A stretch of DNA of 64,000 bases from Amphiscolops sp. MND2022. Taxonomy: Eukaryota. Positions 30,002-64,000 of the stretch are shown one piece after another. Made by a program: the position numbers and the translations under genes. The notes below the pieces were generated by a model, which worked only from the letters and a program-made list of their open reading frames with translations, ran no database searches and had not been told where the DNA came from. The stretch lies in contig OZ076409.1 of NCBI GenBank assembly GCA_964187785.1, forward strand, positions 17,920,001 through 17,984,000, in the 5' to 3' direction. How positions within the stretch are numbered: position 1 is the first letter of the stretch; the number at the start of each line of letters is the position of its first letter.

Positions 30002-30246
30002 CTGAAACGATGTAGACATTTTTATTGAAACCCGATTCGCAAATTTCAATTGGAAAGTTGTAGAACCGTAAAGCATTGAACATTATTAGAGAAATGAACG
30101 TTTCTTTTTGAATTTCGGGAGACTCTAAATCCACACAAAAAGATAAGATAAAGTTAACTTCCACAGAAAATGACTGTGAAAAATTATCAAGTATCAAGTC
30201 CAGATCCGAGTGATCTCTTCATGTTGGAAGTCTAAAACATACTCAC

Positions 30247-30540: not shown

Positions 30541-30689
30541 CTACGAGAAACATGATACTGTGTAATGCAAGCATGATTGTTTTTGATTTGCAACATTGAA
30601 CGAGGATTAGATCAAGACACAGCTGTTATACACAGCAGACATATTGGATTTAACGACCACGAGTATTCTTTTTTAGTGTCCTTAAAAGG

Positions 30690-32195: not shown

Positions 32196-32489
32196 TAGTG
32201 CAGAAAGTACCGGTTATTTCATTGGTACAAGAAACTCCGGTAACAATAGATTTTATCGTGACAGTGTAGTCAGTTCCCGCTATCAGTTCAGTTGCGCCAT
32301 CTGTAGTGGTGAAAGTGTACTCCAGAGCATCACCGCTGTCGACTTCAGTTGTGAAAGTATGAGAGGCAAGAGTCACTTCGTACTTGTCGGGGTTAGGAGT
32401 CGTCGTAGGGTTGGCCCACGTGACTTTGAAGGATGACGTAGTTTTCACAAAATTAGCATCCTCAATCAGGTTTTCCGCTTGCTGGGGTT
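32196..32489 (-). CDS. FN3-like domain exon (near-identical paralogue of 30247-30540)
   Basis: tctcgtAG|AA CCC acceptor and A|GTAAGT donor. 294 nt, phase 1-1. Confidence 0.92.
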
Positions 32490-32739
32490 CTACGAGAAAC
32501 AATATAATGTGGCATGATAACATGATTGTTTTTACATTGAACGAAGATTCGATCTAAACGCCGATGATTTACCCAGTATACTTGATGAACATAACGACTC
32601 AGAAACAAGAATGCATAGATGAGGAACGGTCGTATGTGCTGAAATTCAATCGATCGCTACCTATTACGTAATATAGCAATTCTCAAAGCTTTTTTTACAT
32701 TAATTGAAAAATTGGTCATCGTTTTTTCTTACAACATTC

Positions 32740-36560: not shown

Positions 36561-36591
36561 CAACCAGGTAAGAACCACGAAGCAAATCTTT

Positions 36592-37342
36592 TGTAACGAC
36601 AAGCTCTCATCATTGTCGCCGTAACCATAAGAGTTAGAGGAACACAAGATATGGGCATTTGCCCGGGACATGCGCCCATGACCATGAGCTCATTTTGCCT
36701 CTTTCGGGTAAAAACTGTCCCGTCAGAGGAGGATTCCGCTTCTTGTGAAGTGCTCGCCGGCCTGATCCAGTCTGTAATTGCTGTCGGTAACGTGAATTAC
36801 GCTTTGTCTTCGAAACTACCGCTTAGACAGCCTTTAAAAACGTTCCAAAAGGAAATTATGTTAAATTTTTGTTATTCAGGGTGACTTGGGGACCAATATC
36901 TAAAATTACGAAATAAGATCTAAAATTGTCAAAGTAGCCATAAACTTACAACAATGTACAGTAATCTCGTCCACAACGGCGATTTGGCAACATCCACATT
37001 CAGCTCACAAGCTGGGGCACCACAGGCACAAATTTGTGAAATAGACGAAAAGACTCATTTTTACGGTTCTCGCTACTTAAGGTAGCATACTGCTGAAATC
37101 AAGGTTAGCACCTTCAAAAGAGTCTAATTTCAGAGGTTTTTGCAGTCTCTGGCGTCTGTTCGGGAGGCTGGCCTTATGTTTTTTCTCGATCTTTGCTCTT
37201 TGTTGTCGATGTACCTGCCAATTTCGTTGAAACAGCGAAAAGAGCAATCACATGCTCAGTGCCACGTCAAACTGACAAAATTTCTGAACATGTCACAATT
37301 CCAATATCGACTGATTTTGCTGTCTCAGAGGGGGCCATTACA
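36592..37342 (-). repeat. 3' LTR of the non-autonomous element
   Basis: Direct repeat of 43821-44595. PPT at 37343-37352. Confidence 0.88.
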
Positions 37343-38879
37343 TACTCCCCGGACCTTATGCATGACGTCCCTGTCATGCGGAGAAGCTGGTTTTGAAAAC
37401 ATCTCCACATCATCTTTAAAATTGACTGGGAATTCAAACTGGTGATTTTGCATCGGAGTTGTGGCACAATCATCTTTTGCTGTTTGGGGCAATATTGAGG
37501 ATTTGTTTCTTGCGATCTATCGAGCCTGCTTTATTCACTGGCTGCTGTTACTGGAGCAAGCCCTGGGGGTAGAAAACGAGCACTCAAAATGCACCTTAAA
37601 ACAAATCATAGTTTTATTCTATATATCAATCTAAGATTATCATTTAATTGGCAAAGTTTTCTGCTCTAAATTTAGATAGGATCTTAATAGCACTGATGTT
37701 TATGTGGTTTAAGATCTTTTTTGGAGCCCTGGGGCTCTCTGGCGCAGTTTCTTTCGAAAACTTCTTTTCCACGCCAGTGAAAAGTCAGTTTGCAGAACAG
37801 TTAAAACTTGTTTTCAGTAAAACTTCTTTTCAGCGGAAAACAGGTAGTTTCTGATATTTTTTGTTCAAAGTTGGACTAGGTTTGGGCAGCACGCACTGAT
37901 GTGCAGCTCCATGCCAAAACAAAAATCATCCGTTGAGGAGAGTATGAAAGGCGATTTACCAATTGACTGCATGTGAGATTTACCACTGAAACAAAAATAG
38001 ACAAGATTCTGTAATTGGAAATTTCGGGGCTAATGAGCTCCATTAAATAAATTATTCCGTAGAAAAGTCACTGAATCAAAGGAAAATTGACATTGAAACT
38101 TCAAAGAGTATAACTATAGAGATAACGAAACTAAAGAAGAAACTTTAAAAAAAAAGCATCTGGCCAAAGTTGCACTAACGAGGACATTTATGTTTCTTTT
38201 TTGTTTTTTTTGTTTTTTGTCAAGCCTCGCTGATAGCCTTGAAAATGGTATATCAAATATTTTTTACGAGAAACAAAAACAGTTTTTTTATCAAGCTGTG
38301 ATTGTATACATCAGAATCGATTGAAAGTAATGTGCGGTCAGGATTTCATTACTTTAGATTGTGGCAAATTCCGTGGGTGGTCAGCGTGGAATGTAGAGAA
38401 TTAGAGCGTTGTCACTCCATGGAACTCCCCGGACTTTAGTCAACTCCCCGGACCTTAATCGTTAAGCATTCTTCTTTCATAGCGAGGAATAGACAAACTT
38501 GAATGCCCGACACAAAAATTGCAGAGTCATAAGTTGAGCTTTGACGACACCTCCTCCCCCTTGAAAAGAAATTGAGTGTAGCTCGGGTTGTGGATAGGCA
38601 TCATTATTCGATAGCAGCAGGACATACAAAAAGCATGAAATATCAAGACATCCACTAAAGAAGAAAACTGAGGTTGGGTCTGTCTCAAGACTGTGATAAT
38701 TGTTCGGAGGACGGCCACGCCTATGTCCCTTCGGTCGATGCGACCATGGTAGTAAGAGGACTGAGCGCGGTGGGCGGCCACGGCGACGTCCATCATAAAG
38801 GGATAACAAAACTTTTTGCCATGAATGTTCACTATCTGTGCGCGGTGGTCGACCACGTCAATGTCCAGTCGGTCGAGGT

Positions 38880-43804: not shown

Positions 43805-43820
43805 AAAAATGATGTCTCTT

Positions 43821-44595
43821 TGTAACGACAAGCTCTCACCATTGTCGCCGTAACCATAAGAGTTAGAGGAACACATGATATGGGCATTTGCCCGGGACAT
43901 GCGCCCATGACCATGAGCTCATTTTGTCTCTTTCGGGTAAAAACTGTCCCGTCAGAGGAGGATTCCGCTTCTTGTGAAGTGCTCGCCGGCCTGATCCAGT
44001 CTGTAATTGCTGTCAGTAACGTGAATTACGCTTTGGCTTCGAAACTACCGCTTAGACAGCCTTCAAAAACGTTCCAAAAGGAAATTATGTTAAATTTTTG
44101 TTATTCAGGGTGACTTGGGGACCAATATCTAAAATTACGAAATAAGATCTAAAATTGTCAAAGTAGCCATAAACTTACAACAATGTACAGTAATCTCGTC
44201 CACAACGGCGATTTGGCAACATCCACATTCAGCTCACAAGCTGGGGCACCACAGGCACAAATTTGTGAAATAGACGAAAAGACTCATTTTTACGGTTCTC
44301 GCTACTTAAGGTAGCATACTGCTGAAATCAAGGTTAGCACCTTCAAAAGAGTCTAATTTCAGAGGTTTTTGCAGTCTCTGGCGTCTGTTCGGGAGGCTGG
44401 CCTTATGTTTTTTCTCGATCTTTGCTCTTTGTTGTCGATGTACCTGCCAATTTCGTTGAAACAGCGAAAAGAGCAATCACATGCTCAGTGCCACGTCAAA
44501 CATCGAATTAGAATTTTTGACAAAATTTCTGAACATGTCACAATTCCAAAATTCCAATATCGACTGATTTTGCTGTCTCAGAGGGTGCCTTTACA
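43821..44595 (-). repeat. 5' LTR of the non-autonomous element (may extend about 11 bp further left)
   Basis: Direct repeat of 36592-37342 with two small insertions near 44500-44550. Confidence 0.88.
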
Positions 44596-44925
44596 TTTGT
44601 CATTCGTAAATTGTTGATAGAATAACTTTTTATCACTTTCCTTCCATATTTTCAGTGAACGTCTTTGAGTCAAACTCGGTTGTCGAGGGCGAAGTCGCGA
44701 ATAGAAAATAGGCTCCTTCTTCGTCTTTTAGGTGTAATTAAAGGTTTTAAGTCATAAGTACTTTTGACTACAATTTCGTATCATCCAAAATTATTTATAT
44801 TTACTGTTTTTGCGCTCGATTAGGCTCTACAGAAAATATGATACTGTAGAATGCATAACTTTTCTATGTGATACTCTGTATATGTATAAAATAATGATCA
44901 AGTTTCATGTACTGAATAACTGACG

Positions 44926-47900
44926 ATGGTTATCACGAGACATAACAGCCGTTCAACATCACAAGTAACAGTTTTAGATGATGTCTGTGTGCATTGTTCT
45001 CAAACTTTTGATCCCAATGCACTGGACGGCTCCATAAAAGGTGACAAAAGCGATAACTGGGCGCATTCAAGTTCCAAAACATCCCTCCGGAGATGCTCAA
45101 ACTCATGGAAATATATTGTTGTTTATGGTTGTAGTGGCTGCTCATCGAAGGTCAATAAATGGATCAAAACACCATCCGATTTGGTTGGATTCAAGGAACA
45201 ATTTGAGAAACAACTTTGTTATACAGAGCCAATCCTCGCTACATTTCAAGATAAGTCAATTGTTATATCCTCTGATTCCCCTACTTGAAAAACTAAAATT
45301 AAAGATGAAAATTGTCCCAACTGAATGAAATTTTCAAGAATCAAAGAACTGGTACCGGAAAATGGCAAACTTTAGTCAACTGATATTGTTGAACATGGAA
45401 GAAAAGAAATTGAAACAATTTTTACACAGTTAGGAGTAGACATGTCATGTGTAACAATTGTTCAGAGACTGAATAAAAGAAAGAATGACAACGCAAGACG
45501 ATGTCTTTTATTGGTTGGCTCGAATAACAGGTTGAGTGTTTGAAAATTACTAGTTCATGCACCCACTACGATGTAATTTTCCTAACAGAAACTTGGCTAC
45601 ATGAAAATATTCTGGACGGAGAACTCTTGTTACCTAACTAATCGTTGTTTAGATCTGAGAGGTATACAATGGGAAACATATCGCCACATGACGGTGTTGG
45701 AATAGCAACTAATCGACAATCAACTAAAAGAGGGTAATCTTTGATGGCAACATCAATGGTATCTACGTCAGCTGCCAAATTTACATCAATACAAGAAACC
45801 TACTCCTCGCTTGATTTTATAATCCAGATAAAAAGAGCCCGTATCATACTGATAATAGTGGAGTTGGAATACTATTAAAACTGTACACAACGTTTCCGCT
45901 CTTATGATTCAGTTGTCATATGTGGAGATTTCAATCTTCTCAAAAGAGACTGAACTGATTTTTCCAAGGATATTGAATCTATTCAACAAATCCTCGATGT
46001 CATCATTGAAAACGAGCTTATCTTGCTGAGTAAGATCTTGAACACGTTGTCGTGCCATAAAAGTGATGAATATTGCAACTGCCTGTCTAATCTTGATGGA
46101 ATAGACTGTAAAATAAAACCCTTGAAAACAGTGGAACATAATCGTCCTGTAAAACACCCTGGACAACTTTACACCTTTAGTAGAGGAATGAAGAGATATG
46201 CAGGAGCAACATCTACGTACTGGTTGTTGAATGGTAAACCTGGTTTTATGGCTTGATGGATTTTGCTTGACTTAAACGAACCAGCTACAGAGCAAATCTT
46301 CTTACCATGGGTAAAACACTAACAATCCAACTTGACTTGATCAGAAGAGTTCAAACAGTACAAAAGGAACAGTCCAAAAGTTTTCAAAAACCTTCAGAAT
46401 TTCAGTCTTAGTTAACAACTCATCTGGAAAATGACATACTGGAATATGAATCGATTCTTTCTAGTTTCCGTTCAACTGATGGACTGTTCAAGTTCTACAG
46501 GTCGTTCAAGAGTGTAATAACACCAAAACGACTCTTTTACAAAACTTAAACAGCTTCTAATGCAAAAGCCCAGACCCAACTGTTTTCTAAATTCTTTTTC
46601 TCAATATTCACAAAACCTTCTCGATTTAAACAAAACTACGAACAGCTATTATTGCTAATAATTGAGGACATTGATACATCTGTTGAAACTATAATAACAA
46701 TTTGTGCATCAGTCTTGAGCAAATCCCTCAGCAACCTTTTTCATAAAATCGAGCAGCAATATGGAAAAGATTTCGCATCAGTCCTACGTACAGGAAGGTA
46801 AAAAGCCGAAATCCATAGTTAACGTCAAATATACCTGCTGGTGATTATCTCCAATGTCTTTGAAGAATGCCTCTCAATTGATCTACACAAGTACCTGACA
46901 TCAATTGTTAGTCCTGCTCAGTTTGGATTCAGCGAAGTGAGGTCATCCAAACTCCAACTCGGTCGATTTTTTGAAAAATTCACAATTCTCCGAATTGTAG
47001 AGAGGATGTTGATATTATATATACAAACTATGAAAAAACATTTGATAACGTCGATCATGATACTGTACCTACGAAACTTTTCCGTTATTATATTCGTGGC
47101 AGGCTACTAAAACTTCTACATACAATCTTCTCTCACTGATTGCAAACAATGCGTGAAAGGTGATGATCAAATATCTTACAGTGTTCTCACAGTGTGGATG
47201 TCAGTACTGGAGTGCCGCAGGACTCCATACTCTCTTCAGTTTGCTATTTCTGATTGATGTGAACGACTTGCCAGAAATTTGTCTAACAATTCAGCCCATC
47301 TTGTGTGCAGACGATATCAAAGACATTTCAATAAACAACTGTAACCTACCGACACACTTTAATCTTAGCGGAATCGATAAATGGGATAAAAACAATCTGT
47401 CCAAGACCCCGACAAATGTCTAAATCAAAACTTCGATTCAACTGCCAAACTTTCATTCTTTTCAAATGACAAAATCAAACCAGAAGAGCAACAAAAAGAC
47501 TTAAGCATCATTATCACCGTAAGATTCAATTGGAATGCTCACATAGACTATGTAGCTGGGAAAGCATTGAAAGTTTTGTACCTTGTCAAGCGCAACTCAA
47601 CTACGTCATCCAATATAATCAAATTAAATCAATTACTTTACCCATTCTTACATTTGGATCTAATTGCTGCGAATGTGGAAGATTGCTGTATTTTGGAAAG
47701 TATTCAAAAAAGTCCTACATAGGTTATTGGGCCAATTGGTTACACTTCAACTAAAAGATTCCAACGTCCTAACCATATCACTAAACAAACTCTGTATCAT
47801 CTATTTCTATCCAAAATCATCAGTGGTCATATGACATCAACGTTAATGTTCATCTTCGCTTGAAGGAAATGATCCAAACAACGAGGTCTTCAGAAAAATT
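44926..47900 (+). mobile_element. Decayed CR1-like LINE with PHD-finger-like ORF1, APE endonuclease and RT remnants
   Basis: ORF1 remnant CVHC...W-H...CSGC. Endonuclease motif DVIFLTETWL at about 45570-45600. RT motifs QFGF, TGVPQDSIL, FLIDVNDLP and ADDIK. Confidence 0.8.
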
Positions 47901-47924
47901 CACTTTCAATCTCTCGTGGCTGAG

Positions 47925-48020
47925 CAATTCAACAAATAAACACGGGTTGTGGATGTCAGTAGTGATGTGCCGCAGGACTCCATACTCCATACTTGGTATT
48001 TGTTATTTCTAATTGTTATG
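47925..48020 (+). mobile_element. Second LINE RT fragment (similar to about 47190-47260), the insertion target of giant gypsy copy 2
   Basis: tgtggatgtcagta...gtgccgcaggactccatactc is shared with 47193-47231 and ends at the LTR start. Confidence 0.65.
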
Positions 48021-48433
48021 TGTGATGCCATGATGCATGTCCTCAAAGATTCTATAAATCTGAAATCCTCTGAACTCCTAACCAAAGTAATTAGTAAATG
48101 TAATCTCATTTGAAAGCTAATTATTCTAGAAGAAACTTCACTTAATATATCCTGTAACAATCTTCTTAGATTCATCCTGTTGCTGTCACAATATTAATTG
48201 ATGAAACCTACCCTAGTTAATAGAATATATCTACTCGGAGAAATTGAGAATTCATCCTGACGATCAGTCTTCTCTCCAGCACTTCAAGAACTGAGATCTC
48301 AGAAATAGATTGTACTTAGAACTAGCTAGCTACAAGGTATAAAGTAAGACGACCATGCTGTTAAAATCATAGACTTCTTATGTCAGTAATAAAACATCTA
48401 AAAGAAATAACACACACGCTTTTTTACAGCTCA
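48021..48433 (+). repeat. 5' LTR of giant gypsy copy 2
   Basis: TGTGATGCC...ACAGCTCA followed by AT and the PBS TGGTGCGACC. AATAAA at 48388. Clearly diverged internally from the copy 1 LTRs. Confidence 0.9.
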
Positions 48434-48435
48434 AT

Positions 48436-48453
48436 TGGTGCGACCAAGAAAAT
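48436..48453 (+). promoter_or_regulatory. Primer binding site of copy 2
   Basis: TGGTGCGACCAAGAAAAT, identical to copy 1. Confidence 0.8.
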
Positions 48454-48606
48454 TCTTCTTTCTCTCCCATTCATTTCACAACTCTACAATTGTTGTACAC
48501 CTTTTTTCGACTTTCTCAGTCGATATCTCTTTGTTCGACAGACAGTTTCTCCACCTCTCAATATCGCCTACCGTTATTAACTTCCACTTTGCAACCAATT
48601 TCTATT

Positions 48607-48735
48607 CGTAATTCCTTCCACGTAATTCCTCCTATCAGTTACATTTCTTGGTTCTGACTGCGTTTCTCAACGTAATTCCTGTCAGTCATATTTCTTGGTT
48701 CTGACTACGTTTCTTAGCGTAATTCCTGTCAGTAA
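48607..48735 (+). repeat. Leader tandem repeats (about 46-47-bp unit containing CGTAATTCCT)
   Basis: CGTAATTCCT occurs four times and TTTCTTGGTTCTGACT twice. A related array lies at about 25424-25510 in copy 1. Confidence 0.75.
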
Positions 48736-49331
48736 AATTTTTCGTTCCAACCACCTTTAAGTGAATTCGTGTTGGTTTTCTCTTTTTCTTCCGTTCCAAC
48801 CGCAGACGTGCGATACGTGTTGGCTATCTACAGGGCTATCCAGCGATTCCTGCTAGTAAAAATTCTTTGGTTCTAGCCGCTTGGATCAACTTTAAAGTTG
48901 GCACACCTATATAACATATATTTCTTACATAATCTCATTATAACACTTCTTTTTCTCTCTCTCTCTCCTATAGTACAAACATCATACAAAACTCTTTCAA
49001 AACTAGTTTACGGATCCAAATACATAACAATTATAATATATAACAAATATATGATTCAAATACATAACAGTTATATTATATAACAAATATATCAAATATT
49101 TCTTCATCTAACTTTCATTTTTTCATACATTTATATAACACATTTTCATACAACCTCTTTGACATACTCTTAAAAGGACTTTATTGTACATGTCGCCTTC
49201 AGTAGACACTGTAGTTAAACTCATTGTCTGCTTTTGGTTCTTTGTTGCTATAGTTGCCGGTCTTGCACTTTTTCTTGACAAATTCCTAATTTCCTTCATA
49301 CCAAAACTTTAAAGTACAACTTTTTCCTTCC

Positions 49332-49565
49332 ATGTTAACAAGTATAGTACTACCTCTTTTTGGACTGCTTAGTATTTACCACACCTTTTATACACTTATC
49401 CAATATATACAAAATCCATTTCTTCTTTTCATAAGTATAGTACTTACAATTTTCCTACAAGTTGTATTCATAGACCAAATCTTACCATATAATTCACAAT
49501 TCAATACAAAATATCTTCTTTTCCAATACATCTATCCTTTATTGCAAACTTATTATACTAACTAA
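49332..49565 (+). CDS. 77-aa hydrophobic upstream ORF (intact)
   Basis: Counterpart of 24637-24870 with the same start and stop and mostly conservative substitutions. Confidence 0.55.
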   Translation: MLTSIVLPLFGLLSIYHTFYTLIQYIQNPFLLFISIVLTIFLQVVFIDQILPYNSQFNTKYLLFQYIYPLLQTYYTN

Positions 49566-49580
49566 ACTTTACACCATATA

Positions 49581-52500
49581 ATGCTTCCTACTCCATTTAC
49601 ATTAACTACAGAAAAAAGACAAAATCGATCTCTCATACAAGATGTAACACCTTTTCTAAACAACATCATCTTTCAGTACACAAATCCACTTCCATTCGAA
49701 ACTGAACCCCATACAGTACATACTATTCCATTGGCACGAGAACATTGTGATTCTTATCTTTGTTACATTCGATATAAAACACTAGAAATAACATCATCAC
49801 AAACCCCTTTTCAAATTATTTTTAACCCAGTTAAAGGAATAAGTTCTGGTACATTTTATAGAGCCATTCACCCACAAAATATTACACTTTCTATACAAGA
49901 TGTTTTCAATACATACATGCTAAAATTTATTGAATTCAACGAAAACCAAGATACACCACTTTATCGTTCCTCTCACTTAGAAGAACTAAAACACAAATCT
50001 GAATTTTTCGAGGTCCCTGAACTTGACACAAGAATTCAAAGACATGATAATCCTCATTACTGGCTACAACAAGATATCTTACAGATAAAAAACTTTCAAT
50101 ACAGATTCTTCAATAACATTATTCTTACGGATGACACTATTCCCCAAGTCAAAATTTTTACCCATTTCCTATTAAAATTTTTCAAATTTAACTATCAACT
50201 ACTCTGGGAACAAAAAGATCAACAAGCCTACATTAACTTCCTCAAATATTAACACCTACAGAACTCTTACCATACATCATAGAGAATGAACATAAACATT
50301 TACAATACAGAGATCTTACATCACTTAATATTGCACATTTTGAACAAATAAACTTAGACCACAACTTTTAGTTGAAAATTCTGAAACATCAGATAACCGA
50401 CCTTTTACTACATCTGATACTTCTTTCGAAACAACTCCTGAAGCACAAACTTCAAATGTTGAACTTTTATACACTAGACAACATTCAGAACAATCTGAAC
50501 AAGAAGACTATCACTTTTCAAAATACAGAACCTCATCAAGAAGACCCACCATATCCACCATTATCACAAATATCCAATATACAACAAATGAATCCCTCTG
50601 AAACAGCTACAATTCAAAATACATCAGAATTTTCAGAAGAAACTGTACACAATACACAAAGTTTTACAATAACTGACGACACAAATCTTATACAAATTCC
50701 TACCCACACTATCACACAAAATGAATTTAATAACCAAAACCAAGACAACACTTTAAATACAAATCACGAAAATACCTTTTTTTTATCTACCACCCATACT
50801 AATATTACACAACCCTCTCAGACACAAGTATCACCTCGTCGAAATTATGATCCACCTTCTATTCCATCTCAATTCTCAACTCAGACTCATACCCATAATT
50901 CTCCTCAACAAAGCTCTTCAAAACAACATATTCCACAAAACACTAATACTGTACATTTTCAAACACCAACCCCACCATCACCTTCTGAAACACAAACTTC
51001 AACTTATACTCCAGCTCAAACTAACCCAGTACAAACTACACAACCTACCTTAAACATTAATACCATTCATTCCAACCCATCCTTTAATTACACCACTGCC
51101 AGAAAACTTTCTCGACCTCCATTACAAACTATATTAACTAATCCATTATCGTACAATCTTACAAGTACTAATCTAAGTAATACACGACCATCTCAGATAA
51201 CATACAACAGATCCAATTCATTAAATACTCTCTCTTCTCAACATACGTCTAATACAATCACACCTACACTGCAAACTTCTCAATTCCAAATACAAAATCC
51301 TCCTAAAACAACAATTAGAACCAACCCTCACTTCCACAACACCTCTACTACTTCCTTAACTAATATTTCAAATAATCCCACTAATAATACAGCACCACCA
51401 TCTACCATATCTCATAATACTATGTCACACTCAACATATATTAACTCTTCTACTTCTATATCAGAACCCATTAAACCTTTTGATGGACTAGATCATAATT
51501 ATACACCTGAAGAATATTTACAACATATTGAGGCACGTGTCACATTTTCCTTAGGTTTACAACCTACATCAGAACATGAATATAAAATTTGGCACGCTCC
51601 TCGCATGGCCTTCATACAATGCTCTTTAACAGGTACAGCACTTAGTTGGTACATTCGTTTAAATGACACCTATAAACACGATTGGCACGCTTTTGTACAA
51701 GCTTTCAAAAAACAATTTTCCTTACAAAGAATGCTCATTATGCTCAAGTTGAAGCCCTTAATTTAACCAAGAAAGATAATGAAACAGTACGTCATTTTGC
51801 ACTCAAAGTTCAACAGCTGGTTGAAAAAGGCTGGTGTAATGAGAATGCATCCACTATCAACCTTAAATGTAATGAAATCTTTACAAAAGGACTTCCAAAA
51901 AATCTTAAAGACTTTGCAAACAAAATACAAGTGTAACACACTTCCACAGTTTTAGAACCTTCGATTCCTTTTCATAGATTAGTAAAACTTGTTGACGCTG
52001 AAGATATTGCAAACGACAAAATCAGAACACATGATCTTGCACTTGAAATTAATAGTTTTACAAAACAATTGAACACTCAAACTCTTGACCCTTCATCTCA
52101 AGAACAACTTATGTTTACACAACCCAAAGATCCAAATAACAAAAATAAACCTGCATATAAGAAATATTGCTCATACTGTCATAGAACAAATCATTCATTT
52201 CTGCTTGTTTCAAAAAACAACGAGATGATGAAGACAAACGAGAAGCATATGCTCGATCTAAATCTCCACAAAAATCTTTTGTACAACACTTCCGTTCTCC
52301 CTCCAATGATAACACTATGATAATCGATACCGAAGTCGAAGTACCACACGAGACAACTCTTACAATAAAACTTATTCACAAAATCGATACCGTTCTACAT
52401 CTAGAGATAGAGATAGATTTAGTTATGACAAAAGTACTACTCCTCCATACTACTCTAGATCACGATATGATACATACAAACGTGATTCCCGGTCCTACCG

Positions 52501-55500
52501 TTCTCCCTACAGATCTTCATACAGATCCCCTTATCGACACAACTCTCGTCCTAGATACAGATCACGTTCCTATTCCAGAGACAACAAATTCACAAAATAT
52601 ACAAATTCTTACAGACCACCTTCAAGACCAAGAGATTCTCGATTTTCTAGATCTCGCTCATACTCCAATTCCAGAAACAAAACTAATATGGTACAACAAC
52701 AAGACCAATCTGACCCTATAAAATTTGAAGTACATATGTATCACCCAACAGCAGTGGCAAACGCTGTAACACCCACAAGTTGGTTTTATACATTATATGT
52801 TCATACACCATCAAGTATAGTACAAAGTGATAACCCATCTAGATTGGAAATTGCAATCCTTCTAGATAGCGGTGCTTCCATTTCTGTATTAAATTACCCA
52901 ACATACAAAACCCTTACGGAACTCTTAGATATCAGATCAAATCACACTTCTGATGTTGGACCAACTCGAAAATCCAAAACATTAACCGTTGCAAACCAAA
53001 CTGAAGTTCCAATTTAACACTATGCAAATATAATTTTAAACACTACTATTGATGAAAACTCCCGTTACTTTTCAGTACCTTTTGCAGTAGCTGATATCAA
53101 ATACAACATTCTTGGCACACCATTCTTTGAAGACAATATACAAAACATAAACATACAAGACTTTACACTGGAATTCAAATACCATTCAAAAACACACCCA
53201 AATTATGCAAAGTTCACAACACTCCTATCTAAAGATTTTCCATATTTCTCATACATCTACAGAATTAACTCAAAAACTCAAATACGTCTAAAACCCAAGT
53301 CTTCAAAAATTGCACACTTTCCAATAAAAAATTATCTTAACCTCCATTTTACAACTACACCACAAAACTACATCTTCCTTTCAGTACCTCATACCTATTT
53401 TGCTACCAAATTTCGTACAAATTTCAATTTTTTGGAAGTATTCACTGATGACAAACCAGATATTTGTGCAACTATCATCCAAAACACCTCAAAACATGTT
53501 GCAACACTACCCACAGGACTTATTGGATATATTGAAGTTCCAATTACTATTGAAAAACCCAAATTCTTTCAAGTTAATGATATTAACACTTTAATACATA
53601 ATGTTACTTATACCTATCATTCTGAAATGACTGAACCACTTCCACAAACTAACTATATTGTACAACATGATGATCCTACAACCCCTCCTCCTCAATTTTC
53701 CTTACATCAACTTTATATGACAAACGATGACATTCCAAGTCAAACTTCTCCTTTATATAACGTTCAGCCTACTTCTCATACTTCTGAAAAACGCATTTTT
53801 CCTTCCCTACCATACACTTCTGACAATCTGAAATTCATTATTAAATTTAACTTCCAATTTTCTGACCTTACAGACACCGAATACATTACTCTTTGCAGTA
53901 AGTTACTCAAGTATAAAACATGTTATGCAACTCATAAAAACGATGTTGGAAAAATTTCAACACCCTTCCGTATTCGACTTAAACCAAATGCTCAACTTAT
54001 GACACAACGTCCTTCTAAAGTCCCAATTCACTACCGAGACAAACTCAATGTACTTCTCAAAGAACTCGAAAAATATAACTTTATTAAACAAATTGGTTCC
54101 TCTCCACAAGACAAACCTGTTTATGGCACAACTTATTTAAACCCCTTCATTATAATCCCCAAGGGAGATACCATAAAATGTGTATTAGACGCTCGACATC
54201 TTAACTCCAATACAGAACAATCCGATGAATCTTGGCCTATTGAATCTCTCGCTCCACAATTAGCACGCGCAAATAAAAACTACAAATCTGCTATTGACCT
54301 TATGTATGCCTATGCACATACACCTCTTGATGAAGACACTATTAAACTTACCAGTTTCTCCTCAGGAGATAAACTTTTCGCTTTCATCCGAGGCTTTTAT
54401 GGTCTCAAAGGACTCCCAAACTTCTTTACAAAACAAATGTCTACCTTCTTTAAAACTCGTATACAACAAGGTTTTGCTCTTGTCTACATTGACGATATAT
54501 TACTTTTATCTGACTCTAAAGAACACATGTTCCAACTCATAGAACAATTACATATTATCAGTACAAAAACACAATCTTAAACTAGCCCCTGAAAAATCCT
54601 TTTTCATGCTTCTTAAAGTCAAATTTCTTGGACATGAAATTGGTTACAATACAATTAAACCAATTCATTCGAAAATTGCAGCTATCCATAAAATTCCTTC
54701 TCCAACTGGCAAAGTTGCCCTAATGAGTTTCATTGGCGCACTCAATTTTTACACCAAATTTATTGAAAAACTACATATTAACCTCAAACCATTTTACAAT
54801 CTTTTACATGAGAACACTCCTTGGAAATGGACTGACGAACACGACAGTCTTTTCCAAAAACTTAAAATGTCTCTCACTTCTGAAACAGAACTTACAATAC
54901 CAAATACAAAACATCCATTTTTCATTACAGTTGACGCTTCCCTTATTGGATTAGGCGCTGTCTTATTCCAATTAAATGAACTAAACAAAATGAAAGTTAT
55001 ATCTTACAACTCTCGTATACTCAACCCTCAAGAACAAAAACTCTCCACACTTGATAGAGAGCTCCTTGGTATAGTACATGCTCTCCAAATCTATGAATTT
55101 CTTATCATTGGTTCTCCTCATCCAATACACATTTTTACTGATCACAAACCTTTATTACATTGTTTTACAAAGAAAGGTAACCTTAGTCCTCGATTTTACA
55201 GAGCTCAAATGCAAATAACAAAATTCTCAAAACTCAAAATAATTCACACCCCTGGAAAAAATCTCTCTGTTGCTGACATGTTAAGTCGCTCTTTTACAAA
55301 AACTGAACTACAACTCAACCAATTAAAACATAAACAGCTTCCACCACAAATTGATTTTGCACTTCTACAAAATAACACTCTTAAACCTGTACATTACTTA
55401 ATTAAACATGAAGAAACTTTACCTCGCCAAAAAAATGACTCTCACCACGTCCTTGCTGATTATGGTACAGACCAATTCTCTATTCGTATCAATGATAAAA

Positions 55501-57736
55501 GAAATGACATTGTTGACAAACCGTTACAATCTTTCTCATTCAAATCTATAACTCCTTTTCAAACCAAAATCAAAATACCTATAAAAAGAACAATAAAACC
55601 CTTCATCAACAATCTCTCTTACTCAATGATACTGACGTTACAAGCGATGACGAAGATCATATATATACCAGAATTCCAAAACCTGACTCCTCTTTCTTAC
55701 ATGACACAACATTACAAACAGAAAACTATTCTACTCTTAACAAACTAACCCCAAAAACCTCACAAAAATCTGTTTCCGCAATAAATGTACAATCAAATTT
55801 ACCATCTCTCACACATTCTCCACAGATTATACCTTTTTATGATACATCAATTTTCAAGTACAAAAACTATTTTCAAGGTTTCTTCCTCCCAGATGACTAC
55901 TCATTAGACATAACAACACTTCAACAACAACAATCCCAAGACCCGGTTCTCAGAACTATTCATTCTTGGATTGTAAAAAATGAAAAACCTGAATCTCTAA
56001 CACCATTTATTACTGGCACTCTTTTTCTACATGCTTATTACAAACGATTTTCACAACTTTTTATAGATGACTCCACAAATCTTAGTAGCCTTTATACTAA
56101 ACACCCTACTACTCAAAACCAATCTTTTACTCCAGATTTTGTACACGCTACTATTCGAATCTGTCTTCCATTCCGACTATTCAAAACTGTTTTTAACAAA
56201 CTTCATGAACACTCTCATACAGGTATCAAATTTACCTACAATACATTTGCACAGTATTACTACATTCCATTTGTTGAAAAATGGCTTTCCATGAAAATTC
56301 AAACTGCTCCTACAAAATCCTTCTCAGAACACGCTCCATCTTTCAATTACCGTATTTCAATGGACACTAAAGGACCTATTAATCCTCCTTCCCACAACAA
56401 ATCATATATACATGTTATAATCGATGCTTTCAGTCACTTTGTTGTTACAGTACCCATTAAATCAAACAACGCAAAGACTGCTATCAAAACTCTTCTACAC
56501 CATTGGATTATTAAATTTGGACCACCCATATATCTTGTTACTGATCGTGGATCAGAATGTGTCAATAAAGAAATGGCACAACTCCGTACACTAATGGGAA
56601 TTCGTCATTCTCCTAGAACAGCTTACTCTCCTTGGACAAATGGCCTTGTCGAAGTACAAATTAGAAATCTTGGTACACATCTACGAATGTTCCCACATGA
56701 CAGACCTAAAGATTGGGCATTCCAAGTCCATATGTACGCTTATGCACATAATTCACAACCACTTTCAGAACTCAATATTTCTCCTCATGAAATTGTTTTT
56801 TACACCAGACCCAGAATACCCCTTACTTTTGATCTAAATCTTAATAGAGACACCTCTAAAACATGTATTTCACGTTATTGCTCCCAACTTCCAGAACATT
56901 CTCACTATGATAAATCAGATCTCAACCCATTTTTTAATCGAACTCTTTCAAAACCCATTCCACAATGGTTTCTCGCTGTAGAAACTGCTATGTTACAAAT
57001 TGATTCTACAGTATATGAAAACACTTTACGAAAAATCAATTCACACGCATACATTACAAAAACCTATCACGAAGGTAAACCACTTCCTACTGGCACCTTT
57101 GTTTTAAAACGAAATTTTACGCAAGTACATTTTTCTGACAAACAAAAACCCCTTCGGATTGGACCATACAAAATTATTGATAGACTATCAGATGTTACAT
57201 ATGAACTACTTGCACAAGACGGCTCTACAATACATGTTCATAGAAATCATTTAATTCCATATTATCCAAAAGAACAACTCTTATATCCACATTTGCGTAG
57301 TTTCATGCGCTTTTCAGACACAACTCAATTCCAAATTCCACAACCTACCAAATATGCAAACAGTGATTCTTCCCCATTCAACTCAGACGAATCTTTATCA
57401 GATGAAGATTCTCAAACATTCATGACACCATCCACAACAGATAATTCGTCTCAAACATTTGTAACACCAACATCACTTAGTACGTCCAATCAAAATACAC
57501 CATCTACACCATCCAATGACAAGTCTTTAACGTCCTCAACCAATGACAACTCCTTATATAGACATATTATTAACACCCCTCACACTAATATCCCTAGTGA
57601 CAGATCAAGACACTCTTCTAATACCCAAACAACTTCACTTCCTCCTCTAATTGACAGAACTACTAAAACTACTTATAAACTCCGACAACAACCCAAATTA
57701 GATTATAGACTTTTTATTACACCCTCAAAACTGTAA
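49581..57736 (+). pseudogene. gag-pol polyprotein of copy 2 (reconstructs to about 2700 codons, disrupted)
   Basis: ATG at 49581, capsid-like domain, CCHC knuckle, RS tract, LLDSGAS, YIDD, VDAS, integrase core and RIGPYKI. Lesions checked (for example near 50240 vs 23950) differ between the copies, which implies one ancestral frame. Confidence 0.93.
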
Positions 57737-57846
57737 TGTCAACATTCTATCCACTGGCTCACTCAAAACTAGTCACTACAGCTGAATGAAAAATAGTCAA
57801 TAACAAGTTATCTCAAAGATAACCTGTTGAAGACATTTCAAGAATC

Positions 57847-59061
57847 CTGGATTCTTCCTCTGAATAATCTCCATCAGCTCCAAGTATTCCTTCTACTCCT
57901 GAATCTTCAGTATCAAACACTACAAACTCTAGTAATGTAACTCCTACTACTCCTTCTAAAAGACCAAGATCATACGTTTCTGAAACAACTTCTTCCTCAC
58001 TCCTTCATAGACCACCTATAACTGAAATACCTATAAACACTCGTACTCAACAAACCGCTATTAATGCTCCTATAGTACACATACCAAACCCAGAAAGTGT
58101 TGAACAATACGTAAACTACAAACATCCTACAGCCATCAAAACTGTTAGACTACAACCTCAACTTAATCTTGTACAAATCCCTGATACTGAATATACAAAA
58201 TTACCTTCATTGAAATTACCATCAGAACTTAGTACTACTTCTTCAAAACTTTATCCACCATTAAAACCTCTCCGAAAACCTTCTACATCACTCTCAAATC
58301 TCTTAGACAATACTTCAGAATTCGCTCCATCACAAGACACAAGTTCACTTTTTGTACCTCAACATAGATATAATCTTCGCGACCTCCCTTCACGTAGACT
58401 CAGTACAGACACTTCAACACTCAACTTTTCCGCTCTTTCTAGCAACTCTGCACTACGATTTCTACGACAACACGCTCAACCATTGTCCTCTGACACACAC
58501 TCTTCAGAACTCTTTCAATCTCCTTATTTTACTTCTGGTTTTGACACCGCTTCATTACTTTTTTCTAATGCCCAGACTGCGTTTTTATCAGGAGACCTTT
58601 TGTCACAAGTAGTAATCCCTACTCCTGTTCTTGCACATATTAGACTACCCGAATACTATACTGCAGAACATTCTAGTCCTCCAAATCCTAATTTTGCTGA
58701 TTATCCACTTCGAGTTGACGGAATAACAATCTACGACCCACAAAACGACCATCGATTTCCAATTCTTGCAGAACGTTTCATTAATAACAACGACCTCTTA
58801 TCTCACAAACGCAACGAAACAGAATTAAAACGCCTTCAGACACCCAATCTAGAACTTAAATTTGAAGTTAAAGTCGAATTTCAAGGATTAATTCCACACC
58901 CAATATTTCACAATTCTAAAATAGAACATAAAATCTCTCCTGCTCCTTTTGAAGTAGTACATATTGAATTTGAACGCGATCTTAATATACCTACTATCAC
59001 ATATGGCAGAATCGTCTTCTGTAACCCATATTCAGGTCTCAAATATACAACATCTTTTTAA
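57847..59061 (+). CDS. Orphan ORF of about 400 codons between pol and env with no in-frame ATG and a PSAP motif
   Basis: Frame open from 57868 to 59061 (read manually upstream of the listed TTG at 58210), with one stop at 57865. PSAP at 57871-57882. Overlaps the env start. Confidence 0.65.
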
Positions 59062-61666
59062 ACTCTACACAACCTTTTACATAACAAATCTGATATTCTA
59101 TTTACATTTATTTACCTTCACCTTTTCAATACCCATAACACCCTCTGACACAGAGAACTATCTTCCATCGGATGATCCAAATATTACAAATCTCATGGTT
59201 TCTCATTATGACTGTGCAAAACAGCATAATTTGAGACAATCTAACTTACTTAATGTAAAACAATGCACTGAAGCTCCTTCTGACATTAAACATGCAAGTG
59301 TTAAAGCCCGTGTATATGTCCGAGCAGAAGCTAAACGCATCAAAGCTTTTAAATGTGTTGCTTATGCAAAGAAAGAAAGGAAAATATGCTTTCAAGGTTC
59401 CGTAAAATACCGTCGTGTTGATAGAACGGTATGGAATCATAATACATTACCGCTTCCTGTTACTCTTGATCCATTAGAATGTAAAAACATTATAGGACAT
59501 TTAAATGGTACAAATGATAAAATATTGAACAACCTCCACTACAATAAAACTTTCACACTTTTAGAAGACCATTATTTTCAAGAACGATTGGAACAATATC
59601 AAACTCCTTTCACTGTATTCCAATTAAACAAAGTGTACACAGGTACATTTACATTTATGCCTGCTGATAAAAACTGGATATATGACCCTACTCGAAACCC
59701 TTATCTTAATTGTCCTGCTCATCATCAATTCCAAGTCAACCTAGTTAGTTGGCGATTAGAAATTTCTGATAATAGATCGACATACATTACCCTGCTATTT
59801 TGCAGATGGTTTTTATAAACTCACAACGAAAACCCCTTTTACTATTGTTTGGTTCAATGATGACTTTTGCCTAATTTGCACATTACAAGACTTCATTGGT
59901 CGTATGACAAAAATTGAAGATAGATACTGGATTGAAACAGACTTTTTTGTACATTCTCCACACTCAATAAAACCCAAAACAACTTCTTGTATCAAAGGTA
60001 CAGAACATCCATATGTTTATGCTCCTCATACACAACATCCAAATAACCCAAGTCTTTCAAGATTTGAAGTTTTTCCTACGGCACAAACTTTTTGTGGTAA
60101 ACCAGACCCTCTTTATTCTACACAATAATCAGACCTTTTTGTTACATACACTGAAAGTTTCAATATGCATACAGGACAACCCAACCCTCATTCTATGATT
60201 GATGAATATATTTCTGGTAAAACAGTATTGGACACTTCAAATAACAAATTTATATTTCCTGCATTAAATGTTTCAAACAACTTTGCTAACATTGACTATG
60301 ACGCACATATAAACACCAAAATAGATTACACTATTAACCATGTTTTCAGATCAATGACAGTACAAGAACTAAATACTCTTCATACAATATGTGAATTAGA
60401 ACGAAACCAACTTCTTACAATACTCGCAATGTCAGTACAAAATCCTAAACTTGCTGGTTTTCTTTTAACCGGTAATAGAAGTAATTTCTTGTACGTTGAA
60501 GGCTTACCCGCCTGGCTCTATGACTGCCCTCATTTTTTATCCTTTATATAAAGCTGATAGATGCTTTGACCGTATACCTATCCATTTTAGAGATCCCTTA
60601 ATGTACGTTGATCCAATTACAAGACGAACTTATGACTATGCTACACCAATTACATGTGATAATAATCCACGTAACATTATTGAACTATATCCTGATTCCG
60701 ATGATCAAGATTTTTACATTCTTGGACCTGAACCTATTAAACACAATCCTCCACTAATGTTTACACCTTCACAAATCAAAACTACAATACGCCCTAACAC
60801 TTTTACAGCTCAAGATGCTGGTATATATTCTAATGCAGAACTCGACCAATTTTGGAATCGTATTTTATTTTCCAAACATTCTGATTCTACACTTCAATTA
60901 CTAGGCAAAGCTCTTAGCTATTCTTTCATTTCATCTATTACTCCTAATTATGATGCAGATTCCCCTCAAGATTCTGGTAATTCTATAATACATTTTGTAT
61001 AGGACTACATGATAAACTCTTGAATTTAACTCCTCTTTTTACACCTACATGGTTTTCAGATGCTTTTATTGCACTTTTTGGATATCCTTGTTATATTCTC
61101 ACACATTGTGGTATATACTTTTCTACATTCCTTTTTGTACAAGCTACTCTTACACTCATTGTCAAACTTTACAAAACAATATCTATTAAATATAATCTAA
61201 AAAATAATATTATTTTATTTAGCTCTATCGCACATGGTTTTTTTAATGTTCTTACAGCACGAATGGTCAATGACCTCAATGAGACTCAAAACAAAAAACC
61301 CAAAAGTACACTTATAAAAGCCAAATCCTTAGATAATTTTATTGACACTTCAACAAATTTAATTAATCACTCTACTGATGTTACTTCCCCTCCACCTTCC
61401 TATACTAAACGTCCTAACAAAATTCAATTTCCTAAATTTAACTTGTTTCCGAAACGACACCACAATTCTCACCAAAAAACTGCTTCACTTCCTTTCTCTC
61501 CTGTTCAACATCCTCCACTTCCTAATTATACTCATAAAAACTTTCATCCAAATGACAATCTAACTACTCAACATGACACTTTAACAATTCTGTCACCTCT
61601 ACTACGGATACACCAATTAAAATCTATTCACGGATAAACTATCCTTTTCCTCCTCCATCTTCTTGA
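59003..61666 (+). pseudogene. env: Env-like class III fusogen-type glycoprotein, first tandem copy (disrupted)
   Basis: ATG at 59003, signal-like hydrophobic segment, YDC, CELER..QNP, CFDRIPI..YVDPITR..ITC, TM segment at about 61050-61165 and PPSY in the tail. 38-bp deletion near 59770 and a stop near 60126. Confidence 0.82.
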
Positions 61667-61695
61667 ACACTCTCTCAGTTTTGTGCAAGCTCTCT

Positions 61696-64000
61696 TATAC
61701 AACATCTTTTTAAACTCTACACAACCTTTTACATTACAAATCTGATATTCTATTTACATTTATTTACCTTCACCTTTTCAATACCCATAACACCCTCTGA
61801 CACAGAGAACTATCTTCCATCGGATGATCCAAATATTACAAATCTCATGGTTTCTCATTATGACTGTGCAAAACAGCATAATTTGAGACAATCTAACTTA
61901 CTTAATGTAAAACAATGCACTGAAGCTCCTTCTGACATTACACATGCAAGTGTTAAAGCCCGTGTATATGTCCGAGCAAAAGCTAAACGCATCAAAGCTT
62001 TTAAATGTGTTGCTTATGCAAAGAAAGAAAGGAAAATATGCTTTCAAGGTTCCGTAAGATACCGTCGTGTTGATAGAACGGTATGGAATCATAATACATT
62101 ACCGCTTCCTGTTACTCTTGATCCATTAGAATGTAAAAACATTATAGGACATTTAAATGGTACAAATGATAAAATATTGAACAACCTCCACTACAATAAA
62201 ACTTTCACACTTTTAGAAGACCATTATTTTCAAGAACGATTAGAACAATATCAAACTCCTTTCACTGTATTCCAATTAAACAAAATGTACACAGGTACAT
62301 TTACATTTATGCCTGCTGATAAAAACTGGATATATGACCCTACTCGAAACCCTTATCTTAACTGTCCTGCTCATCATCAATTCGAAGTCAACCTAGTTAG
62401 TTGGCGATTAGAAATTTCTGAAGTCGAACTTACGTATGATGACACATCCAATGACATGATAATAGATCGACATACATTACCCTGCTATTTTGCAGATGGT
62501 TTTTGTAAACTCACAACGAAAACCCCTTCGGTTCAATGATGACTATTTCCTAATTTGCACATTACAAGACTTCATTGGTCGTATGACAAAAATTGAAGAT
62601 AGATACTGGATTGAAACAGACTTTTTTGTACATTCTCCACACTCAATAAAACCCAAAACAACTTTTTGTATCAAAGGTACAGAACATCCATATGTTTATG
62701 CTCCTCATACACAACATCCAAATAACCCAAGTCTTTCAAGATTTGAAGTTTTTCCTACGGCACAAACTTTTTGTGGTAAACCAGACCCTCTTTATTCTAC
62801 ACAATATTCAGACCTTTTTGTTACATACACTGAAAGTTTCAATATGCATACAGGACAACCCAACCCTCATTCTATGATTGATGAATATATTTCTGGTAAA
62901 ACAGTATTGGACACTTCAAATAACAAATTTATATTTCCTGCATTAAATGTTTCAAACAACTTTGCTAACATTGACTATGACGCACATATAAACACCAAAA
63001 TAGATTACACTATTAACCATGTTTTCAGATCAATGACAGTACAAGAACTAAATACACTTCATACAATATGTGAATTAGAACGAAACCAACTTCTTACAAT
63101 ACTCGCAATGTCAGTACAAAATCCTCAACTTGCTGGTTTTCTTTTAACCGGTAATAGAAGTAATTTCTTGTACGTTGAAGGCTTACAAACCTGGCTCTAT
63201 GACTGCCCTCATTTTTTATCTCCTTTATATAAAGCTGATAGATGCTTTGACCGTATACCTATCCTTTTTAGAGATCCCTTAGTGTACGTTGATCCAATTA
63301 CAAGACAAACTTATGACTATGCTACAACAATTACATGTGATAATAATCAACGTAACATTATTGAACTATATCCTGATTCCGATGATCAAGATTTTTACAT
63401 TCTTGGACCTGAACCTATTAAACACAAACCTCCACTAATGTTTACACCAAAACTGAATCAAAACTACAATACGCCCTAACACTTTTACAGCTCAAGATGC
63501 TGGTATAAATTCTAATGCAGAACTCGACCAATTTTGGAATCGTATTTTATTTTCCAAACATTCTGATTCTACACTTCAATTACTAGGCAAAGCTCTTAGC
63601 TATTCTTTAATTTCATCTAATACTCCTAATTATGATGCAGATTCCCCTCAAGATTCTGGTAAACCTTATAATACATTACGTATAGGACTACATGATAAAC
63701 TCTTGAATTTAACTCCTCTTTTTACACCTACATGGTTTTCAGATGCTCTTATTGCACTTTTTGGATATCCTTGTTATATTCTCACACATTGTGGTATATA
63801 CTTTTCTACATTCCTTTTTGTACAAGCTACTCTTACACTCATTGTCAAACTTTACAAAACAATATCCATTAAATATAATCCAAAAAAATAATATTATTTT
63901 ATTTAGCTCTATCGCACATGGTTTTTTTAATGTTCTTACAGCACGAATGGTCAATGACCTCAATGAGACTCAAAACAAAAAACCCAAAAGTACACTTTTA
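61696..64000 (+). pseudogene. env: Tandem duplicate of env lacking the start codon (truncated by the window edge)
   Basis: 61696 onward repeats 59044 onward. It carries its own frameshifts near 62528 and 63450. Confidence 0.88.

Follow-up and report, generated by a model that had tools for sequence, protein, structure and literature searches.

Across invertebrates, Ty3/gypsy retroelements with an envelope gene (env) of the glycoprotein B (gB) type are about as abundant as those with the F-type (Chary & Hayashi 2026, PMC13524379). Their chuvirus-like glycoprotein is structurally similar to herpesvirus gB, and this type is widespread (PMC13524379). As described in that survey, such errantiviruses of the HSV/gB type (HSV, herpes simplex virus) have three open reading frames (ORFs) and measure up to about 13 kb between their long terminal repeats (LTRs) in some 85 of 1,512 table rows. 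Here we describe a larger family from the acoel Amphiscolops sp. MND2022, which is represented by two copies in a stretch of 64,000 nucleotides (the window; assembly GCA_964187785.1, contig OZ076409.1 or C1, positions 17920001-17984000) of a 1.07-Gb genome seen as 13 chromosome-scale contigs. The family shares with the HSV/gB-type errantiviruses the Ty3/gypsy pol, the LTRs, a tRNA primer-binding site (PBS), the gag-pol-env order, a chuvirus-like Env and multiple young copies, but it is 18 kb long, has an ORF-bearing gap of 1.3-1.7 kb between pol and env, and carries two ORFs after env and three to four before gag. Its identity and architecture appear practically certain, and a recently active, complex endogenous-retrovirus-like Ty3/gypsy family is the explanation that we favour as a whole, with a probability of roughly 70%. 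The Ty3/gypsy pol, gag and chuvirus/gB-like env by which HSV/gB-type errantiviruses are recognised are all present and, judged by its coding content, the family corresponds to an errantivirus as Chary & Hayashi define the term operationally. Since this type of Env has already been described for Ty3/gypsy elements (PMC13524379), the novelty lies not in Env but in the size, the extra selected ORFs and the putative expression mode of one of them, termed X, a combination which we have not found in print.

Each ingredient of the family has a precedent: a gB-type Env on a gypsy backbone, giant size, a MATH domain, endogenous retroviruses (ERVs) of 17 kb, transmembrane ORFs of the MDG1 kind, and CERV. 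The planarian element Burro/GYPSM1 is also giant, with an Env homologous to mononegavirus fusion proteins and a MATH domain, which in the acoel occurs in sister families F-I only (PMC6431247). However, Burro exceeds 30 kb and encodes env in frame between gag and pol in a polyprotein of 4,900-5,100 aa (PMC6431247), whereas the present elements span 17.7-18.8 kb and carry env and the extra genes as separate ORFs after pol. The foamy-like fish ERVs AciFLERV and AliFLERV reach up to 17 kb through accessory ORFs, in gag-pol-env order (PMC6431247). Retroviridae, to which these fish ERVs and the other complex vertebrate retroviruses belong, are characterised by a retroviral reverse transcriptase (RT) and a surface/transmembrane Env, while the RT found here is Ty3-like and the Env is of the gB type. 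Errantiviruses in the strict sense (Drosophila gypsy and ZAM) are characterised by a baculovirus-F-like Env with a furin site and by infection of the germline from the soma through enveloped particles, and the Env described here matches PF24664 only. Drosophila MDG1/412 elements likewise carry small ORFs before gag, one or more of them transmembrane, but lack env, and their sORF2 has a polybasic tail, whereas the acoel peptides are shorter and mostly not basic (PMC11952523). Tor, Cer1 (CERV) and the bdelloid LTR elements with a varied ORF3 combine LTRs with env or an accessory gene (PMC4402516, PMC10309623, PMC5408684); they are described with a single extra ORF or one accessory protein, not six, and no mention is made of a CUG-started ORF ahead of env.

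Layout and kinship of the family

The two window copies lie in inverted orientation (48021-61696 on the forward and 26125-12407 on the reverse strand) and are 83% identical over 13.9 kb in a self-comparison of the window. An earlier interpretation made from these letters alone (the sequence-only reading) had reported for both the order LTR, PBS, small hydrophobic ORFs, gag, protease, RT, RNase H, integrase, orphan ORF and glycoprotein, and this order is seen in both. The further long ORF and the AT-rich 3′ sequence which it had noticed in copy 1 are also real (the ORF is termed Y here and the AT-rich sequence measures ~1.3 kb), and their equivalents in copy 2 lie just beyond the window. A shorter ORF, Z, is present beside Y in copy 1 and, beyond the window edge, in copy 2. 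Numerous frameshifts and stops disrupt both copies; younger ones at other places in the genome show the layout best.

Queries with the LTR and with env returned 2,759 and 10,800-12,600 first-look candidates in the genome, numbers which do not equal copy numbers. Public Env proteins, which are ENA-derived, form large clusters (1758, 1585, 603 and 424 members), and four of them used as queries each gave 50-63 scored copies with 90-100% identity and mostly open env frames. When 40 samples of 3 kb were taken at even spacing, two had matches (1.4% of the bases; bootstrap range 0-3.8%), which puts the share of the family at about 1-4% of the genome, and the idea of a family dominating the genome is unsupported by this sampling. 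We fetched 13 young-type copies genome-wide, a check proposed by the sequence-only reading, and these confirm the layout; they fall into five subfamilies, A to E, with A as the window type. Twelve of them have LTR pairs, spanning 17.7-18.8 kb, in agreement with the earlier estimate of at least 17.5 kb, with LTRs of 268-421 bp that are 99.1-100% identical. A perfect 4-bp target-site duplication (TSD) flanks nine of these 12, and in D/E the LTR ends in TA, not CA.

The common layout is LTR, PBS, three to four small leader ORFs, gag-pol, X, env, Y, Z and LTR; the ORF order is constant from A to E, with 52-89% identity between the Env proteins. The leader consists of a 60-66-aa ORF at the PBS (A-C) and two or three ORFs of 37-79 aa, mostly hydrophobic and with few basic residues (K+R 3-11%). 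The gag-pol frame of ~2,730 aa encodes a capsid, a CCHC knuckle, protease (LDSG), RT (YIDD), RNase H, integrase and an SH3 domain. In young copies, Env has 858-923 aa, Y 430-495 aa and Z 150-305 aa, and ~1-1.5 kb separate the end of Z from the 3′ LTR. Thus, the assignment to Ty3/gypsy with many sense ORFs made by the sequence-only reading stands, six or more such ORFs being found. Several copies are nested in other members of the family (L015-L017, L023, L024). Upstream of one copy (L010, C9:16666500-16675000), three tandem LTRs are spaced at 3.39 kb, the first two of which precede a PBS, a short part of the leader and other DNA.

Fragments from the window matched the Pfam families Retrotrans_gag, RVT_1, RT_RNaseH, rve and Monjiviricetes_fusion, and the Ty3/gypsy domain set also includes Integrase_H2C2 and a weak SH3_Tf2-1. 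The BEL/Pao families Peptidase_A17 and DUF5641 had no match in the element, with a neighbouring BEL/Pao copy as positive control. The nearest solved RT is that of Ty3 (E 1.6e-33), compared with foamy virus (1e-14) and human immunodeficiency virus or murine leukaemia virus (MLV; 1e-4). The PBS of A-E matches 9-12 nt of tRNA-Met(CAT), and Val and Leu tRNAs match equally; in three of three sister elements tested the match to tRNA-Met extends to 18 nt, and tRNA-Met(CAT) is probably the primer. Tandem arrays of tRNA-Leu(TAA) genes, one every 270 bp (ten within 3 kb), and a cluster of tRNA-Val genes also occur in the genome (L061, L051). Before the 3′ LTR, A-E have a conserved T/A-run and CCCGG-type motif and no purine tract, and sister families G and H and the metagenome contig L084 have a G-run. 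Taken together, the 4-bp TSDs, the near-identical LTRs, the tRNA primer site and the RT, RNase H and integrase domains demonstrate, at the level of sequence, integration as an LTR retroelement.

Against PF24664, for which the cut-off is 27, a natural env frame of 743 aa scores 73 bits, and those of C and D reach 85 and 92; a window-type Env, those of subfamilies C and D and of sister families F, H and I, and those of two metagenome relatives all exceed the cut-off. In nine of nine relatives, 12 cysteines are conserved without exception, and A-D have 9-12 N-glycosylation sites. PF24664 presumably corresponds to the 'HSV/gB' class of the survey, given the shared chuvirus link. The non-F fusogen of the sequence-only reading is borne out by this match, whereas its value as an argument for novelty is lost with the gB-type elements already in print. 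A single-sequence model of Env had a pLDDT (predicted local distance difference test) of 32.5, and the fold search with this model was uninformative as to a five-domain gB fold with conserved cysteine bridges. A scan of viral contigs revealed no Env relative, and the RT scan gave distant RTs only.

A distant pol query revealed four more families in the genome, F-I, of which six copies were fetched (loci L063-L080 on C2, C4, C6, C8 and C9). They span 17.8-19.5 kb, with LTRs of 1.5-2.3 kb and separate gag and pol frames, and a TTTAAAC slippery-type site directly precedes the gag stop. A stretch of 3-4.7 kb with several small ORFs, which in F and I include two or three partly paralogous ones between pol and env, leads to a gB-type env (26% identity to A) followed by two ORFs. 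The last ORF encodes a coiled coil and a TRAF/MATH domain (42-81 bits in Pfam in three of three tested) with dN/dS of 0.07-0.17 where measurable. The pol protein P0237 had no near-identical match in the genome (best 43%). A related RT is present in 11 metagenome contigs, three of which extend into the env region. L084 carries gag, pol and env, followed by two ORFs, and its PBS is of the same type; in L089 the order is pol, ORF, env, ORF, and L088 is similar and incomplete. In these contigs, a PF24664 env adjoins unrelated ORFs of 230-390 aa. In an RT tree, A-E, F-I and the metagenome relatives fall on one long branch with support of 100 (20 rows, one of them long and unplaced, against 91 other RTs which carry no clade names). 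This tree of 111 rows is a quick search with Shimodaira-Hasegawa-like approximate likelihood ratio support only and a midpoint root; it omits 11 of 122 candidates with short coverage, including three viral-contig RTs, and long-branch effects in the grouping are possible.

Selection on the extra genes and the putative CUG start of X

Pairwise Nei-Gojobori comparisons between natural copies (pairs A-B and D-E) revealed that env and about six extra ORFs are kept under purifying selection. The dN/dS values of X (0.18 in A-B, 0.10 in D-E) and Y (0.15, 0.06) are similar to those of integrase (0.12, 0.11) and env (0.12, 0.07), and Z has 0.32 in D-E, A-B being saturated (pS 0.79, pN 0.26). Among the leader ORFs, sORF0, similar in A, B and C, has 0.18 (A-B), sORF1 0.43 (A-B, wide interval) and 0.10 (D-E), sORF1b 0.02 (D-E), and sORF2 0.45 (A-B, wide interval) and 0.19 (D-E). 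As controls, the non-coding spacer in three frames gave 0.85-1.38 and an off-frame ORF in gag 1.08. The conservation of the extra ORFs assumed by the sequence-only reading is therefore upheld for X, Y and Z, none of which has a ratio near 1.

X and Y are homologous in all five subfamilies (35-45% identity between distant ones), while Z is shared by position only among A/B, C and D/E (13-22% identity, not alignable). The best 120 of 277 Y homologs are all ENA entries, with at least 63% identity, and no relative of Y was detected among viral contigs; neither X nor Y is similar to the ORFs flanking env in the metagenome relative L089. A structure prediction for Y (45-row alignment) had a pLDDT of 40 and was confident for C-terminal helices only; Y also contains a stretch, PPPKKRY, resembling a nuclear localization signal (NLS). 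X consists of a Ser/Thr/Pro-rich N-terminal part and a conserved C-terminal domain of ~140 aa. LYPxL, an ALIX motif, and YNLR occur in X of all five subfamilies and PSAP in three of five, with chance expectations per X protein of 0.02-0.04, 0.002-0.004 and 0.03-0.07, respectively. YNLR recalls what we take to be the string of the foamy virus Gag chromatin anchor. For this anchor, the arginine alone is confirmed in the literature (PMC6042332), and PSAP is a TSG101-binding late domain (PMC3705263). Neither PSAP nor LYPxL was found in the 5′ stretches of gag-pol (three scanned); at the C-terminus of pol, LYPxL occurs in A/B, and YxLR is present in each of the four scanned. Among the metagenome relatives, LYPxL is found in the Env tails of L084 and L089, together with PSAP in L084.

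In all five subfamilies, X lacks Met throughout its 418-488 codons. Its first in-frame near-cognate codon is in each case CTG with A at -3, G at +4 and Asp as the next residue; CTG is rare, making up 0.5-2.6% of the Leu codons in gag-pol. This codon is kept in both window copies and in three of four older copies checked, and A-type copies and B have frame-breaking indels upstream of it and none in the aligned downstream stretch. The distance from the CUG to the env AUG is 1.17-1.35 kb and contains 2, 3, 2, 1 and 0 ATGs in A to E, compared with 5.7-7.8 in codon shuffles (P = 0.057, 0.024, 0.011, 0.002 and 0.001). Seven of eight control coding regions show no such depletion, their out-of-frame ATGs equalling or exceeding the shuffles. 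A non-AUG start followed by an AUG-poor region is a signature of leaky scanning, as in ORFs I-II-III of rice tungro bacilliform virus, and a CUG start is known for MLV glyco-Gag (PMC3542737); these are mechanistic analogies from unrelated viruses and proteins. An X without AUG, a conserved CUG in strong context and an AUG-poor stretch up to env suggest a bicistronic X-env mRNA with leaky scanning, a scheme which we consider likely.

The favoured explanation and its alternatives

In the explanation that we favour, full-length RNA would encode the small membrane peptides and a single Gag-Pol polyprotein, and a subgenomic RNA, spliced or made from an internal promoter, would be bicistronic for X and env. 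Some ribosomes would initiate at the X CUG, while most would scan through the AUG-poor 1.2-1.3 kb to env. [quoted passage not shown] Y and Z would come from further subgenomic RNAs as accessory (regulatory or anti-defence) proteins. We infer this expression mode, the protein roles and infectivity, and with them the virus-like behaviour of the family, from sequence. The adaptor role is proposed because X carries PSAP/LYPxL motifs that are not present in the sampled Gag regions; it is tentative, and the chief alternative to it is a regulatory function in the nucleus. For real cell-to-cell infection we see the chances as even.

Several observations weigh against parts of this explanation. The CUG of D/E is not exactly aligned with that of A/B/C, and the five CUGs are not five independent cases because the subfamilies are related. 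The ATG depletion is marginal for A alone (P = 0.057), a few out-of-frame AUGs persist ahead of env, opening frames of 1-17 codons, and Met is likewise rare in the low-complexity N-terminus of Gag (0.3-0.8%). X of D/E has no PSAP, and Pro-rich sequence readily yields short motifs. Pfam contains no family for X, Y or Z, and X and Y had no sequence match in PDB and no usable match in the Atlas; the proposed roles of X, Y and Z are thus guesses. No furin site (R-x-K/R-R) was found in five Env proteins scanned, and the hydrophobic segments of Env are weak (window scan at 1.6), appearing at both ends in A, at one in B/D and at none in C. Moreover, the 13 copies were picked for an open env and the counts of intact frames are therefore biased: X and Y are each full-length in 11 of 13, and gag-pol is uninterrupted in only 3 of 13 fetched stretches.

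The weak hydrophobic segments would fit an intracellular retrotransposon whose env and extra genes serve within the cell or in cell-cell fusion, with no infectious extracellular particle. The small transmembrane ORFs before gag also take a position like that of sORF2 in Drosophila MDG1, which spreads without Env (PMC11952523). However, selection on env equals that on integrase in strength and the cysteine frame of Env is kept, and the leader peptides, with 3-11% K+R, are unlike the polybasic sORF2 or fusion-associated small transmembrane (FAST) type. We regard this alternative as doubtful. Slightly less credible is that an upstream exon, spliced or trans-spliced, supplies the AUG of X, that env is translated from a separate mRNA made by splicing or from an internal promoter, and that X, Y and Z are Rev-like or transactivator-like regulators. 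Inspection by eye shows AG sites resembling splice acceptors upstream of X in several subfamilies; in A, B, C and D, the stop of Y is directly followed by a donor-like site, and Z is preceded by an acceptor-like one. Env of Oikopleura Tor uses internal promoters (PMC4402516), CERV of C. elegans Cer1 is the product of a spliced RNA (PMC10309623), and the NLS-like PPPKKRY of Y as well as YNLR in X, with its likeness to the foamy Gag anchor, would agree with regulators. Splicing leaves unexplained, though, the invariant rare CTG in Kozak context and the depletion of AUG in all frames up to env.

Alternatively, the family might already be catalogued with this layout, in Repbase, Dfam or the library of the genome paper, or fall within one of the clades surveyed by Chary & Hayashi. 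gB-env gypsy elements are known, and since thousands of matching proteins exist in public ENA-derived data, repeat libraries will hold pieces of the family. On the other hand, the PBS string GGTCGCACCA occurs in no supplement file of the survey (file 2), the prefilter of the survey admitted regions of up to 10 kb and POL-ENV gaps of up to 1 kb for most non-insect genomes, and its main text does not contain 'accessory', 'extra ORF' or 'small ORF' (PMC13524379). No description of the combined layout or of a CUG-started pre-env ORF was found in the literature, most subscription journals, Repbase and Dfam lying outside the search, and we consider prior cataloguing improbable. The undescribed lineage suspected by the sequence-only reading holds to the extent that no described family was matched in the literature, a comparison that did not take in Repbase, Dfam and GyDB. 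Finally, that the extra ORFs are chance open frames on a C/T-rich, stop-poor strand, as the strong skew of the coding strand (GC skew about -0.4) and long off-frame ORFs inside gag might suggest, is refuted for X, Y and Z by dN/dS of 0.06-0.32 versus ~1 for spacer and off-frame ORF and is exceedingly improbable in general; it may still hold for sORF1 and sORF2 (A-B intervals up to 0.9) and for the variable small ORF after Z.

A wider and more speculative proposal, which we think rather unlikely as it stands, extends the favoured explanation to a clade, unrecognised so far, of complex and infectious retroviruses of invertebrates, present in several hosts. These would have a Ty3/gypsy backbone, a CUG-started matrix-like protein and a gB-type glycoprotein on one mRNA, a pair that could be likened to the M-G cassette of negative-strand viruses, and several accessory genes; the TRAF domain of the sister families may then blunt host immune or death signalling.

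The window copies, their surroundings and implications

On the forward strand, copy 2 starts with TGTGATG at 48021, inserted into a decayed stretch (46700-48020) which reads like a long interspersed nuclear element (LINE) reverse transcriptase and has no Pfam match. Its 5′ LTR (48021-48433, TG...CA, 413 bp) has its partner outside the window, 4.3 kb beyond the end (C1:17988292-17988704); the two are 97.8% identical (9 mismatches in 413 bp) and flanked by a TATG TSD. The PBS TGGTGCGACCA (48436-48446) is an 11-nt match to the 3′ end of the host tRNA-Met(CAT) and equally to Val(TAC) and Leu(TAA). It is followed by sORF1 (49190-49312, a 40-aa peptide with a single transmembrane segment) and sORF2 (49332-49565, a hydrophobic peptide of 77-79 aa with one or two predicted transmembrane segments), and sORF0 (48380-48580, 66 aa) runs across the unique 5′ region (U5) and the PBS. 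gag-pol (49581-57736) is interrupted by frameshifts and stops. X (57847-59061) lacks an AUG in its frame, starts putatively with the CUG at 57847, carries PSAP, LYPxL and YNLR motifs and, in this copy, has a premature stop, and env (59003-61666), encoding the chuvirus/gB-type fusion glycoprotein (PF24664), is broken.

A tandem duplicate of env (61696-64000) continues beyond the window, where Y, Z and the 3′ LTR follow, and copy 2 is 20.7 kb long because of this 2.65-kb duplication. The halves (59044-61316 and 61696-64000) differ by 40 mismatches in 2,262 aligned bases, that is, at 1.8% of sites versus 2.2% for the LTRs; with such similar divergence, the duplication appears about as old as the insertion and an assembly slip is unlikely. 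A public protein of subfamily C, P0159, represents a second tandem env duplication, and such duplication is therefore recurrent in the family.

Copy 1 lies on the reverse strand and extends from 26125 down to 6798. Its 5′ LTR (25705-26125, with an ATAA TSD) and PBS (25702-25692) are followed by sORF1 and sORF2 (24637-25012), gag-pol (16401-24621), X (15070-16285, with the CUG at 16285 in the same context as in copy 2), env (12438-15128), Y (10792-12121, of no known family) and Z (9955-10333), all broken from gag-pol onwards. The second LTR (6798-7220) differs from the first by 19 mismatches in ~421 bp; with LTRs 4.5% diverged, copy 1 is older than copy 2. Ahead of the second LTR lies a 1.3-kb repeat of the flank (7221-8612), which derives from upstream of the 5′ LTR (26126-27423) and is not part of the family. 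Since only two places, both in the window, match across the junction, a local rearrangement is indicated. An LTR of 1.7 kb was rejected for this copy, the extra length being the flank duplicate. One arm of an inverted repeat resembling a miniature inverted-repeat transposable element (26807-28055, arms of ~455 bp, 81% identical) falls within the duplicated flank.

Elsewhere in the window, a decayed BEL/Pao element (1509-6520, reverse strand; Peptidase_A17, DUF5641) lies between 151-bp direct repeats. Exon-like frames at 870-1283, 29637-30625 and 32104-32553 (reverse strand) belong to a host gene with fibronectin type III repeats, fn3 being below the cut-off for two of them, and one of the introns of this gene appears to contain both copy 1 and the BEL/Pao element. 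Two 750-bp direct repeats (36590-37343 and 43819-44596; 96% identical, 7.2 kb apart, interior without a long ORF) are probably the LTRs of another element.

Acoel genomes have been described as LTR-rich (PMC9911081), and acoels are not among the taxa listed in the survey of enveloped elements (PMC13524379). Enveloped gypsy elements of invertebrates have been viewed as three-gene elements, and the present family has about six extra conserved genes; the filters of the latest survey, 10 kb and a 1-kb pol-env gap (PMC13524379), would for the most part overlook a layout of 18 kb in which this gap is wide. The lineage is real: a Ty3/gypsy lineage that is giant and complex, has a gB-type Env and carries several accessory genes under selection. 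Its genome is as complex as those of lentiviruses or foamy viruses, yet lies outside Retroviridae, and each extra gene is selected. The CUG start with leaky scanning to env is a sharp and cheap prediction. Moreover, the family is a candidate for the question raised in the survey of how gB-only elements work without the helper glycoproteins of herpesviruses (PMC13524379), and the TRAF capture of families F-I points towards retrotransposon genes that counter host defence.

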